Part shown: positions 11,805 to 64,000 of the stretch, in pieces
Layout: each line of letters opens with the position of its first letter
Numbering within the stretch: position 1 is the first letter of the stretch
Source: Podarcis gaigeae
Taxonomy: Eukaryota
NCBI GenBank assembly: GCA_964106915.2
Contig: OZ066917.1
Direction: 5' to 3' (one strand)
Length of the DNA stretch: 64,000 nucleotides
Notes under the pieces: generated by a model
What the model was told of the DNA's origin: nothing
What the model saw: only the letters and a program-made list of their open reading frames with translations
Databases searched by the model: none
Program-made: the position numbers and the translations under genes

Positions 11805-11902
11805 AAAAAAAAAAAAAAATCCTTCCAGTAGCACCTTAAAGACCAACTAAGTCAGTTCTTGGTATGAGCTTTCGTGTGCATGCACACTTCTTCAGATACA
11901 CT
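11805..11902 (-). mobile_element. Penelope 3'-terminal mini-insertion (hammerhead plus tail) inside an L2 fragment
   Basis: Near-identical reverse complement of about 63155-63246. 13-bp TSD TGCGAGAAGCCAA at 11792-11804 and 11903-11915. Confidence 0.9.
11862..11899 (-). ncRNA. Minimal type I hammerhead ribozyme motif, identical copy on the minus strand
   Basis: Exact reverse complement of 63157-63194 (gtatgagctttcgtgtgcatgcacacttcttcagatac). Confidence 0.85.
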
Positions 11903-56993: not shown

Positions 56994-57100
56994 GATAATA
57001 TAAATGTGTTTTTGAAAGCTTGTGAAAATCTTGGATTAAAGGAAGCTCAGCTTTTTCATCCTGGTGACCTTCAAGATCTATCTAATCGAGTTACTGTCAA
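56994..57100 (+). CDS. LMO7: LMO7 internal coding exon, CH domain part 3 (107 nt, phase 0 to phase 2)
   Basis: Acceptor ctttccacttctcttcacag and donor AA|gtaagt. Translates [35 protein letters not shown](K), nearly identical to LMO7 and in frame with the two previous exons. Confidence 0.97.
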
Positions 57101-59577: not shown

Positions 59578-62299
59578 CTCTAACAGGAGCAGACTAGGAA
59601 AAGGCACATCCTTCTAACTCTGCCGCAAATGCTGTAGAACTGTCCCTTGTGTTTTCTGTTGTCCCACATCCCAAAGAGGGATGAGTTCTGTTACCTCAGC
59701 TGTGATTGTCTGGCTGGCTGATTTATCTCTTCCCCCACCTTCTGTGTGTGTGTAGGCAGGAGAGTGAGGGGAAACCAAGCTTGGTCTCTGTCATGATATA
59801 GATGCTGCCCTTGGGTCCAGAGTCTCTGTCTCCCCACCTGGAGCTTTAAGTATGGAGAATAGAAAGGAAGCAGCTACCATTGATGCCAGCCCATAGCTTG
59901 GCAGTAATGGCAATTGCCCCTCCTTCCTGCTGTGTCATGTCTTCTAGGACTTGAAGAGAAATGGAGATCTTCAGGAGTAGGGGGTGGAGGGGAGACTCAG
60001 ATGAATGGATTGGGGGTGGATGATTGACTTTCGCCTGATTATTTGCAAGGTTTCCCTGGATTCCTTTAAATAAAGTTATAGGAGTTTTCCCTTGTCAAGA
60101 AATGTTATGATACCCCTTCCACTACCACACAAACATTGTATATCGTCATGAATCCTGTGGCCAACATTGTGGCACTTGTCACAGTGGCCTAATGGAACTT
60201 CTAATGGATTCTGTTCATTAATAGTAAAGCTGAGTTCAGTTAATAAACATTTTGTGATTTACTGTTTGTGTACCCGGTTCCTTTTAGGTTTGCAAAGGTA
60301 TTGATTAGCTTCCTAAAAACAAAAATATACTGCAGGAAAGCAACAATAAACCACACCACCCCTACAGTCTACAGTGGTTGTTTTCCTGCTGGAAGGTGAC
60401 ATGAGCTCATCTTCAGCTATAGTCACTAGGATATGTAATAAACTGAAACTGAGATCAGATAGCTTAAAAGGAAACAGTTGTGCAAGATATTCCTTAAAAC
60501 TATAAGCATGAACTCTAGTCCAAAATGAGCAACAGGGATATGTAGTAATTGGCAGTGAAATTAATGGTGGAATGGTAGCTCAATTTGAGAACTGCTGTTA
60601 TCATTTTGGTATCTCTTACAGTTCTTGGAGTAAGAACTAACAGACATTATGATGAGCTCGACATCAGACTCACAAATAAATATTATTTTCTTCATTAGTT
60701 AAGCTGATTTATAATTACAGCAAACAATGTCTAGTAGCTGCTATCAAATGCAAAACAACAACAACAATGCACTACAATTAACAATTAATGATTTGTGCAA
60801 AGATTGTTTGCACAACCCGGACAAAGGCAAATAAATATATAATCAGCAGTGGACTAGTCCCAACAGGAGACAATTACCTTCAGTTATTGACAGATCATAC
60901 TATCAATGAAAGCATCATCACCCAAGGGACACTACCTCCTGAGAAGATTCTTTGTCCTGGTCCAAGAGAAACAAAAGCACTATCACAGCTCCCATTAACT
61001 TAATTAGAATTTGCCCAGCATCATGATGTATGTATGAGAAGTCGTGTAAGAAAATGACATGTCTGTTTCTCTTAATTGGAGCTTTCAAGCATGTCACAAA
61101 CCTGTCTGGTGTTCAGCTTTAAATCATGATTTAAATTGGAGGGAGGGACAATTACATACAAAATACCCATTTTAGAGTAACACCACATCCAAACCATACT
61201 TTTAAACATTCTTATACACCTCTAACAGTTATGGCTACCCCCAATTAATCCTATGAACTGTAGTTTGTAAAGGGTGCTGAGAGTTTTTAGGAGAGTGTTA
61301 ACCAATATCAGTTCACAGTACTTTACACAGTACACTTTTCATAAGTGCGTTTAAGCATATAAAGGAACATTAGACTTAGGAATTTAAGTTGAACGTTTCT
61401 TATGAGACAAACATTGTTTTCTTAAACTAGTGTTTGCAAGTATATTTGTAGCGGGTTGTTCATAATGGTGTTCAGAACCAGTTATTTTCGGCTTCAAAGA
61501 ATCTTCAGTGCAGCTGTGAGTTTCAGCGTAGAGGCTAAAGGCAGGACTCCTTTCTAAATGCTACCTAAGCAGGTAGTTATGTTTGGAGAGTTGGGTGGCA
61601 AACAGCTAATGTATATTCTCAACCCCTGAAGAGGAGATTGAGAACTTCTACACCAATTGCTGCCTTTTCCAGCATTAGGATTGGAACTATATAAACACTG
61701 AAATTCAGTAAGTATGTGTTTAGTCATTTGGGAGAATGCCTAGATTTTGAACTACTGAAAATAGTGTATAATTATTTTATTGGGACATGTTTTCTGCACG
61801 GTGGGTGGGTGGGGGTTGAGTATGGATCTCAGCTTCTGTAGGAAGTAAATGTGCTTTAAGGTCAGCCGAGAATATTATAGGGTGCAATGTGAAACTCTTG
61901 CTAAAAATACTTGCAGTAGCATGGGTAGAGCTAAACAGTACATTTCAGACTCTTTAATTCTTCCTGTGACGCACAGTTTGGAAGTTTCAATACCTTGTTA
62001 TGTTTTAAAATTGAGACTTGTATAAATATCGAAACCATAGATTTGGAAACACTGGTATTGTATAGTTCTGGAAAGAAAACTCACAGCAGAAATTCTTACA
62101 TAAATCTGCTTTGTAGAAATTCTCTTTTTTTATAGATTGAAAAATGGATCTATCTATGGACTGTAAAAATGGAAATAGATATTATACCCTTGCTTAGGTA
62201 TATTTATTTACACGCAATAGTATTTAATGCCTACAAACTTTGCACCCCAGTCTGGTTCAGGCACAAGGGTCATTTAACCCTGTGCGTTGTTCCCATAGT

Positions 62300-62520
62300 T
62301 ACCACCCAGATGCTTATGGAAAATCAGCAAGCAGAACATAAGTACAACAGCAACTTCCCCTCTTGAGAGTCCCAGCAACCAGCATACGGAGGCATATGCT
62401 TCTGACAGTGAAGGGTAGCACACAATCATCATGACCACAAGCTATTGATAACCTCACCCTCCCTGAATACGTCTAATCCCTTTTTAAAGCTATCCAAGTT
62501 TCTGGCAATCAGTACCTCTT
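62300..62520 (-). mobile_element. Old CR1 3' fragment
   Basis: gctattgata..ctc..cc.tgaat..gtctaatccctttttaaagctatccaagtt is the reverse of the CR1 end near 17710-17780. Confidence 0.65.
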
Positions 62521-62782
62521 GAATTTTATTCAGAGTAGACCCATTAAAATTAATGGACCTAACCAGTGCTTTTCCCCAGGGGGTACTCAAGGGTATGCAG
62601 TACTGGCCCCTTTTTTGTTGTTGTTAAAAAGTGTAGCACTCTAGTGATGGAAAGCATTGGGCACATAAGAGTTATATTATAATGCACCTTTCATATATCA
62701 AATGTGGAATCATGCGGTATGATAGGTTATCTTCTGGAATTTAAGTATTGTGTGTGTGTTTAATCTGTTATGATATATTAGG

Positions 62783-63246
62783 AGAAACCAGTAGGAGAAC
62801 ACTTCAATATCCCAGGACATTCTATACAAGATCTCAAAGTAGCTGTTCTACTACAAAGGAATTTCAGAAATAGACTGGAAAGAGAAGCTGCTGAATTGCA
62901 ACTTATTACCAAACTTAAAACCATGGAGAGACCTGGTCTGAACAAAGACATTGGATTCTTATCTCATTATACATGACAAAGCCATTTTTCACCTTCTCAC
63001 CCCTTGCTTTTTCCTGTAAGACCTATTGCAGTCATTAAGAGTCGTCAACAGGCTCATCACAGCTATCTGCCAATCACCCATTCCCACCACCCTTCTGAGT
63101 AATACCCCTCCCCACCTTCTCACTATATAGAAGGGTCTGGAAACTTCTGTTTCAGTGTATCTGAAGAAGTGTGCATGCACACGAAAGCTCATACCAAAAA
63201 CTAACTTAGTTGGTCTTTAAGGTGCTACTGGAAGGAATTTTTTTTA
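62783..63246 (+). mobile_element. Penelope-like retroelement, 5'-truncated (GIY-YIG endonuclease C-terminus, 3' region with hammerhead, T-rich end)
   Basis: The frame 62782-62976 reads EKPVGEHFNIPGHSIQDLKVAVLLQRNFRNRLEREAAELQLITKLKTMERPGLNKDIGFLSHYT*, carrying the HF..PGH, RE..E and GLN motifs of Penelope GIY-YIG domains. 13-bp TSD ATGATATATTAGG at 62770-62782 and 63247-63259. Confidence 0.92.
63157..63194 (+). ncRNA. Minimal type I hammerhead ribozyme motif in a Penelope 3' region
   Basis: GTAT-CTGAAGA-A-GTGTGCATGCACAC-GAAA-GC-TC-ATAC. It has the CUGANGA core, a palindromic stem II, GAAA, a self-complementary AGCU in place of stem III, a UC cleavage site (after 63190) and stem I GTAT/ATAC. 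Confidence 0.85.
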
Positions 63247-64000
63247 ATGATATATTAGGCTTTTTGTTGATGTTAATTATAGCATAATGCTAATTTTTTT
63301 AAAAATACAGACAATAACCTATAAATCTCATTAAGTAACCCAGCTAACAGAGTTGTACGGTGAAGAATAATCTAGTTGCCTGTATGCTGCTAAACCAAAA
63401 CAGAATTAGAACTTCATTTTTGAGAGCAAACACAGTTAAGATCCTACCTAAGCTTATTCAAATGGAAAAGGACAGCAGGCTTGTAAGGCTTCTAGCATTC
63501 GCAGGACCCAGGAGGACTGGATTCATTCTGTCCAAATTTCAGGAACATTTCTTACTGCTTACCTCATTTCTGTTTGTGGCATCTCTGTGTCTCTGAACCA
63601 AGCAAGATTATTGAGTTAGTGGTTGTTGGTTATACTATGTGTTGTTCACTGAGAAGCGTCAGCGTGTATTGCAAAATATTAAGTATTTGTATGTACTAAA
63701 AGGCTAAATGCTGATAAGCGGGTTCACGTGCCAACAGAGATGCTTTATTTGTCACATTGTTATAACTATCTATAGAAAGCAAAACAAATCAGACTTGTAT
63801 CTTTTAAAAATAATAATATTGTACTTATTGGCATCACTGGTCTGAAATGCACATGTTCACCAGCAGACCTGTAACAGATAAGTTTCCAGCAAAAGAAAGA
63901 AGAATAAAGACCTCCCCTAAAAGTCTAGAAATAAATTTGTAAAAAAACAAAAACCCACCCACCCAAAAAAGTGTGGCACTCACTGTAACAACTTCATGGT

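Follow-up and report, generated by a model that had tools for sequence, protein, structure and literature searches.

A young Penelope-like element copy with a minimal hammerhead motif in an LMO7 intron of Podarcis gaigeae, likely inert in the host gene and from a family whose RNA is likely copied uncut

The window analysed here is a stretch of 64,000 nucleotides of Podarcis gaigeae DNA (contig OZ066917.1). A minimal hammerhead motif stands near the end of an element insertion (62783-63246), which lies within a retrocopy that in turn sits in an intron of LMO7. The first-pass annotation had described the motif and its host gene, while retroelement copy and retrocopy were both absent from it. The features of the window are as follows.

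11805..11902, - strand: second copy of the element family, 98 nt, with an identical hammerhead at 11862-11899; it starts at the equivalent of 63154 and has its own 13-bp target duplication
56994..57100, + strand: LMO7 exon, CH-domain part, upstream of the motif; gene identity from DUF4757 and PDZ exons
62626..62641, + strand: left one of the 16-nt direct repeats that flank the retrocopy (its partner, 63966-63981, differs at one position)
62643..63965, + strand: processed retrocopy of the cyclin D1 3'-UTR end, sense to LMO7, 95% identical to C1:58869655-58870344
62770..62782, + strand: left target-site duplication of the element, 13 bp; the parent locus has a single copy
62782..62976, + strand: ORF end, last 64 codons and stop, GIY-YIG C-terminus (same frame in L027: GIY-YIG, E=3.8e-6)
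62783..63246, + strand: 5'-truncated Penelope-like element copy, 464 nt, 97.2% identical over 463 nt to the intact element L238
63124..63131, + strand: TATA-like box of the pLTR, putative promoter element by its sequence, present in both pLTRs of L238
63154..63157, + strand: position where transcription of the element likely begins, with a cap (TCAGT resembling an initiator, 5'-end pile-up, extra G)
63157..63194, + strand: minimal type I hammerhead motif, from sequence, fold and descriptor search, with 9,021 exact genomic copies
63157-63160 and 63191-63194, + strand: stem I, GUAU/AUAC, 4 bp
63161-63167, + strand: core, CUGAAGA
63168, + strand: bulged, unpaired A
63169-63182, + strand: stem II, GUGUG/CACAC with a CAUG loop
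63183-63186, + strand: GAAA
63186-63189, + strand: AGCU in place of helix III
63190, + strand: C17
63190..63191, + strand: predicted scissile bond, at which copy ends show no clear pile-up
63247..63259, + strand: right target-site duplication, 13 bp, a perfect repeat of the left copy

The motif is intronic and in sense orientation to LMO7, as had been annotated: + strand exons flank it, and the PDZ exon of the gene matches PDB 2EAQ, 'LIM domain only protein 7' (E=1e-9). Upstream, exon 56994-57100 matches Pfam CH only weakly (E=0.069), and a further + strand exon lies at about 41.7 kb. The next recognised exon, again on the + strand, is found near window-equivalent 79.5 kb, beyond the window; DUF4757 exons follow downstream of it, from C8:10621856 onward, and a LIM-like exon is also present downstream of the window. 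Some of the LMO7 exons were located by means of short motifs that we presumed to mark them. A second DUF4757 gene, probably an LMO7 paralogue, is found at G000:C19:22847547-22877658 (L113, L114 and L116), and may be LIMCH1. A literature search returned no paper joining LMO7 and a hammerhead.

The retrocopy derives from C1:58869655-58870344, upstream of which exons match cyclin D1 best. It differs from this parent at 26 of 705 positions, its 5' part (62643-62707) is inverted, and its end is A-rich. The parent has the 13-bp target only once and no hammerhead, which makes it an empty site, and the element therefore arrived after the retrocopy. Being nested in this way, the element insertion is young. 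The retrocopy in turn splits a short high-copy repeat (62560-62641 and 63966-64000, continuing in L061), so that three insertions are nested here: the repeat, then the retrocopy, then the Penelope-like element. It also adds AATAAA signals, at 63903 and 63930, to the LMO7 intron.

Reads of relatives, from two RNA runs and two probable DNA runs, were mapped on 61500-64000. The unique-looking ones belong to the cyclin D1 parent and not to the LMO7 locus; variants of the parent locus that are common with a relative's reads are a 6-nt insertion at 63564, a 2-nt gap at 62749 and TTTT changed to AAAA at 63297-300. A novel LMO7 exon, considered on account of a relative's + strand RNA over 62600-63935, was rejected because the reads are those of the cyclin D1 parent. 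A depth-24 contig was likewise rejected as the relative's empty orthologous site, since the cyclin D1 3' UTR parent carries the same variants.

The letters of 63157-63194 read as the first-pass annotation had them, with the core, the 4-bp stem I, the palindromic stem II and AGCU all present. They agree with the definition of the minimal hammerhead, CUGANGA ... GAAA ... UH with helices I and II and with helix III absent, and also with its details, namely an unpaired base 5' of helix II (A63168), the G10.1-C11.1 pair (G63169-C63182) and a palindromic 15.2-16.2 (AGCU, 63186-63189). The stem II 14-mer is a perfect palindrome, folding into 5 bp and a 4-nt loop. A helix-constrained descriptor has two matches in the 64-kb window, 63157-63194 on the + strand and the identical 11862-11899 on the - strand; a loose pattern without helix constraints gives 66 overlapping matches and is uninformative. 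Genome-wide, the exact 38-mer occurs 9,021 times (4,512 forward and 4,509 reverse, ca 6 per Mb), against 0 copies of the reversed 38-mer used as a control. The descriptor matches and these counts mean that the motif is more than a product of chance.

A covariance search, the check suggested with the original annotation, gave nine Rfam matches at E≤10 over 60000-64000, with no hammerhead family among them. The predicted fold, at -6.8 kcal/mol, is no more stable than shuffles (z -0.44). No covariation is seen: among 48 copies changed at 63172, in stem II, one carries a compensatory change, in a family too young for covariation to have built up. The label 'hammerhead' is thus taken from the published minimal descriptor and the element context, and self-cleavage is a prediction. 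The main decay site is the CpG at 63182-63183 (C11.1/G12), with 11 changes in 85 copies, eight of them G63183A and three C63182T; loss of G12 would inactivate a copy, and such copies would form a natural control class. With CpG decay set aside, lineage-diagnostic sites amount to 0 of 38 in the motif and 6 of 51 in the flanks (p=0.03). Its conservation between source lineages suggests that the motif matters to the element.

The element copy in the intron consists of the endonuclease tail, the 3' UTR, the pLTR with the hammerhead and a T-run, with no 'tail' extension, and is up to 99% identical to sister copies. The 64-aa ORF remnant alone has no Pfam match, and its identity was taken from longer sister copies. 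A 23-nt block downstream of the hammerhead has 18,076 genomic copies, whereas an exact 34-mer of the early ORF has only 40, as compared to the ca 18,000 element ends. The family includes an intact member:

G000:C17:77538500-77546000, - strand: L238, an intact element of the form pLTR-ORF-pLTR whose 910-aa frame is open

This frame contains RVT_1 (E=9.5e-12) and GIY-YIG (E=7.8e-6) domains, with the linker CNKPRCQLC (CX4CxxC) between RT and EN, and identical hammerheads are found in both pLTRs around it, at positions 1670 and 4680. The family has what distinguishes EN+ Penelope-like elements: a single ORF with RT and C-terminal GIY-YIG (L238), pLTRs, inverted 5' copies, an optional tail and a target duplication. 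Neptune elements are defined by a zinc-finger-like CX2-5CxxC linker between RT and EN (PMC8557442), and the linker of L238 is of this form, which is common to Nematis as well. From its sequence, the element is an EN+ Penelope-like one, probably of Neptune type, set apart from Nematis here by the linker and the vertebrate host. The element context and the descriptor of PMC4209133 bear out what had been annotated from the letters, a minimal type I hammerhead of Penelope-like origin, a kind for which a dimer is presumed necessary.

The ends of the copies were examined in a set of 103, made up of the first 100 downstream-block copies listed on C1 and three on C8; the set is anchored on the downstream block, with the hammerhead ignored, and inverted pairs count with both arms. 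The 5' junctions fall upstream of 63151 in 26 copies, at 63151-63160 in 38, at 63161-63189 in 28, at 63190-63192 in one and at 63193-63212 in 10. The TATA box is situated 30-33 nt upstream of the pile-up. The 3' ends fall into two main classes, the T-run in 49 of the 103 copies and ORF positions of about +29 to +39 in another 47.

The templated letter before 63157 is T. Genome-wide, 2,701 copies have another letter at this position, which is G in 1,765 of them (65%). The first 100 matches listed have 68 G, 15 A and 17 C, to be compared with G before 5 of 38 at the control position 63193 (Fisher p=7e-9 against those 100). None of 19 inspected G-class loci has longer upstream element sequence, and none of 38 long copies lacks T63156; a source variant without this T was therefore rejected as the origin of the extra G. 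Four of the 19 loci end in TTCAG, which fits either fold-back or five upstream bases. A splice acceptor, TTCAG/63156, was rejected as the cause of the pile-up, the upstream letters varying between copies. For L1 insertions, an extra 5' G is described as a mark of cap copying (PMC11702581). Given the TATA box and the extra G, the simplest reading is a capped start at 63154-63157, and judging from the copy ends the element RNA likely begins, capped, at the first bases of the hammerhead. Alternatively, the extra G could be an untemplated addition by the enzyme at any RNA end. A search of openly accessible paper texts did not turn up the cap signature for Penelope-like elements; copy and read ends are the subject of Fig. 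S2 of PMC11167929, which could be relevant to how new the 5'-end result is.

The relatives' reads provide a further view of these ends. In one relative, loose ends with mixed flanks appear at 63157-63158 in DNA and RNA alike, so that the junction peak recurs in another organism, and the element ORF is read mainly in sense (first-mate-minus depth 39-73 vs 3-15). In the genome itself, 30 loci were selected by the ORF start, and in 24 of them the sequence rejoins where the hammerhead begins, which yields short tandem units. Such units, 183 and 190 nt long, are present at L125 (G000:C1:45258421-45261459) and L130 (G000:C1:104232749-104235787), with one junction repeated, from hammerhead start into ORF start. 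The pattern points to an enzyme that jumped repeatedly on a single RNA, or to a circular template formed elsewhere than at the cleavage site. Ribozyme-made circles were rejected as the source of the units, whose junctions are at the motif start and not at the cut site.

At the predicted cleavage site itself, 89 copies have two foreign letters before 63191, compared to 43 for the control at 63188 and 38 for that at 63193. The excess is approximately twofold (p=2.5e-7) and disfavours a clean 'never cut' reading. Of the 89 starts, 32 follow AG and 16 follow GT, and the other 41 equal the controls; dropping the 48 is a post hoc step, and an AG class had no way of appearing in the control patterns. 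Thirty of the loci were inspected, six being plain stem I fold-backs and four long copies with substitutions, and some of the AG junctions resemble those at the start site. When letters excluded by the search pattern are allowed for, the ceiling for starts at 63191 is about 160 of 18,000 copies, i.e. less than 1%, vs roughly a third at the start site. It is possible that a trace of cut templates is present here.

Among the distinct copies that hold stem II, 187 of 196 continue past 63215 and none stops at 63190, in a set biased by being picked mostly on the whole motif or the downstream sequence. All long copies, that in the LMO7 intron included, span the cleavage site intact. The relatives' two RNA runs have no molecule-end pile-up listed at 63190/63191, a weak test with fragmented libraries and other species. 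It is important to note that copies bound the share of cut templates and not the total of cut RNA, which might go uncopied. The copy ends indicate that the element RNA is likely copied uncut and that the hammerhead is likely not a processing site of the copied templates. This agrees with in vitro work on the anole Poseidon, where cutting by the hammerhead requires the element protein, reverse transcription uses mainly uncut RNA, and no RNA-seq ends are reported at the cleavage site (PMC11167929).

The behaviour of the motif as RNA was estimated with nearest-neighbour energies, models that leave Mg2+, tertiary contacts and protein help outside. Two monomers are predicted at -13.6 kcal/mol, and the active dimer, a double hammerhead, is less stable, at -11.1 kcal/mol. 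The inactive duplex of the 14-nt palindrome, in which helix III is unformed, has -28 to -30.6 kcal/mol. With 30-200 nt of intron flank, the probability of stem I is 0.00 (two decimals), and for RNAs beginning at 63157 it is 0.69, 0.01, 0.49 and 0.21 at 60, 100, 140 and 200 nt, respectively. A conserved downstream block, 63215-63230, is predicted to pair with 63154-63167, i.e. with stem I and core, in an alternative inactive fold. In these models the intronic motif is misfolded in the LMO7 pre-mRNA context.

In our best explanation, which we consider very probable, a young Penelope-like copy brought the motif along as its hammerhead; the motif is likely inert in LMO7, and the element RNA is capped at the motif and copied uncut. 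Read from the sequence, the boundaries of the copies and their counts, promoter, cap, copying mechanism and inertness would fit together as follows. RNA polymerase II would start about 30 nt past the TATA box of the pLTR, at most 3 nt from the first base of the hammerhead, which would then be the 5'-terminal structure of a capped element RNA. The reverse transcriptase would prime at a nicked AT-rich target and begin either at the U-run or inside the ORF, some 33 nt from its first base. From a start in the upstream repeat, the enzyme would run off the capped end after 90-130 nt, copying the cap as an extra G, and joining, fold-back or a template jump would then yield most copies. A start in the downstream repeat would give 5'-truncated copies such as the one in the LMO7 intron. 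In both routes the template would pass through the hammerhead uncut. In the LMO7 pre-mRNA, the flanks are predicted to pair with the motif core, and the motif would be removed with the intron.

A second reading, unlikely in our view and yet to be taken seriously, is that the element's RNA is cut by its own hammerhead, but at a late stage or in few molecules, the intronic copy still being inert. The cut would remove the capped first 34-37 nt, with decapping, translation shut-off or post-copying release as the outcome. As far as the LMO7 locus is concerned, this reading and the best explanation can both hold. It would account for the twofold start excess at 63191, enriched in AG as at the start site, and for the conservation of the motif across source lineages; stem I is also predicted to form, to the varying extents given above, on RNAs from 63157 and not with upstream flank, and cleavage in the anole Poseidon is assisted by protein (PMC11167929). 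However, starts at the site make up less than 1% of the ca 18,000 copies, stem I fold-back explains part of the excess and 4 of 30 loci are the long copies with substitutions, and insertion in vitro is described as unaffected by core mutants (PMC11167929).

The pile-up at 63151-63160 might instead mark a site of reverse-transcription stalling or fold-back rather than a capped start, which we regard as improbable. Many junctions are indeed fold-backs with short homology, some folds have the core paired with the TTCAG that precedes it, and the Penelope promoter of D. virilis is internal and TATA-less (PMC2377424). A stall would, on the other hand, leave the sharp position, the spacing from the TATA box and the 65% of extra G to be explained, together with the occurrence of the same junction beside unrelated flanks and in tandem units, and of loose ends at 63157 in a relative's DNA and RNA. 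TATA and initiator-like sequences are moreover described for rotifer pLTRs (PMC3846280).

It would be surprising if the element protein switched thousands of sense intronic copies, that of LMO7 included, into host cleavage sites, with the hammerhead of the element RNA serving as a self-decapping switch. If true, for example with germ-line expression, the twofold excess at the scissile bond would be a trace of self-decapping.

Highly improbable, too, is cleavage at the LMO7 copy itself to an extent that matters for LMO7. The first-pass annotation had proposed a latent cleavage site that would link element expression to intron processing, and the analysis does not support it. The intronic copy would have to pair with element RNA, or be folded by protein, and cut the LMO7 pre-mRNA at 63190, affecting LMO7. 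The core is intact and sense to LMO7, and partners could exist, the element ORF being read mainly in sense in a relative's RNA. As for activity, a single minimal hammerhead did not cut in vitro while dimers and trimers cut weakly (PMC4209133), and the anole Poseidon hammerhead is activated by its own protein (PMC11167929). However, the active dimer is predicted to be less stable than two monomers and far less so than the inactive duplex of about -30 kcal/mol, and stem I is predicted to be unformed in the intron. The copy ends at the T-run, without the ORF start that is the presumed binding place of the Poseidon protein (PMC11167929), if the analogy holds. It is a recent insertion, one among 9,021 identical copies, and the family seems to copy its own RNA in uncut form; the relative's RNA runs list no ends at 63190/63191, within the limits given above. 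With ca 3 sense-strand exact copies per Mb, it is fairly likely that a gene as large as LMO7 contains one. A flank-skew proxy for the host strand gave no sign of sense-copy depletion, with 39 of 85 single-orientation loci positive and a mean T-A skew of -0.006 +/- 0.008, although this is a weak test. Regulation of LMO7 by cleavage at this copy is unsupported.

That the motif is a conserved intronic hammerhead, domesticated to serve the host, is extremely improbable: conserved amniote intronic hammerheads exist (PMC7761336), but this one was inserted after a retrocopy only 26 of 705 positions from its parent, is identical to thousands of mobile copies and has no helix III.

The motif can be compared with several known systems. 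Like the metazoan Penelope minimal hammerheads (Cervera and De la Pena 2014, PMC4209133), it has a 4-bp helix I, an unpaired base between 9 and 10.1, the G10.1-C11.1 pair, a palindromic 15.2-16.2 and no helix III, occurs in both pLTRs and is dispersed in thousands of single copies, as there in turtles and snakes. It differs in that helix II here has 5 bp and a 4-nt loop with the whole 14-mer palindromic, and in its 9,021 identical copies, the families there being more variable. A position of the motif at the inferred RNA start, as here, is not stated in the excerpted text of that paper. The element resembles the Neptune-type EN+ elements (Craig et al. 2021, PMC8557442) in its single ORF, with RT followed by C-terminal GIY-YIG and a CX4CxxC linker, and in having pLTRs in partial tandem, inverted 5' copies and an optional tail of 30-40 nt, to which the 47 of 103 copies ending at about +29 to +39 of the ORF correspond.

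With Poseidon PAc of Anolis carolinensis (Frangieh et al. 2024, PMC11167929), the family has in common two internal reverse-transcription start zones that define the tail, an AT-rich target, an uncut RNA template and the absence of ends at the cleavage site. PAc belongs to another clade, however, and its ORF begins in stem II, whereas here the ATG follows the first base of the hammerhead by 97 nt; the present evidence comes from a genome and not from biochemistry. Non-LTR retrozymes (bioRxiv 10.64898/2026.07.22.740005; PMC7761336) also have a type I hammerhead from PLE pLTRs, and short tandem units occur in the present family too (L125 and L130). Retrozymes are tandem non-coding units each with a hammerhead, whereas the LMO7 copy is a single ORF-bearing fragment, and the tandem units here join at the hammerhead start and lack a seamless join at the cleavage site, which makes them unlike circles produced by a ribozyme. 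The conserved amniote intronic hammerheads (PMC7761336) are likewise intronic and on the sense strand, but they are old, few and conserved, while the present one is young, minimal and high-copy, and its insertion postdates the retrocopy.

For LMO7, the hammerhead is most likely of no consequence. For the element family, the implications are wider. The role of the Penelope hammerhead is described as unknown (PMC8557442, PMC7761336), the usual proposal being that it cuts the element RNA out of a precursor. Where the copied RNA began and ended is preserved in ca 18,000 young copies, and these point to a capped start at the hammerhead and to uncut templates. An in vitro result from one Poseidon element would in this way be extended to a Neptune-type family in a genome, and the intact L238, with the exact coordinates given here, allows a direct test.
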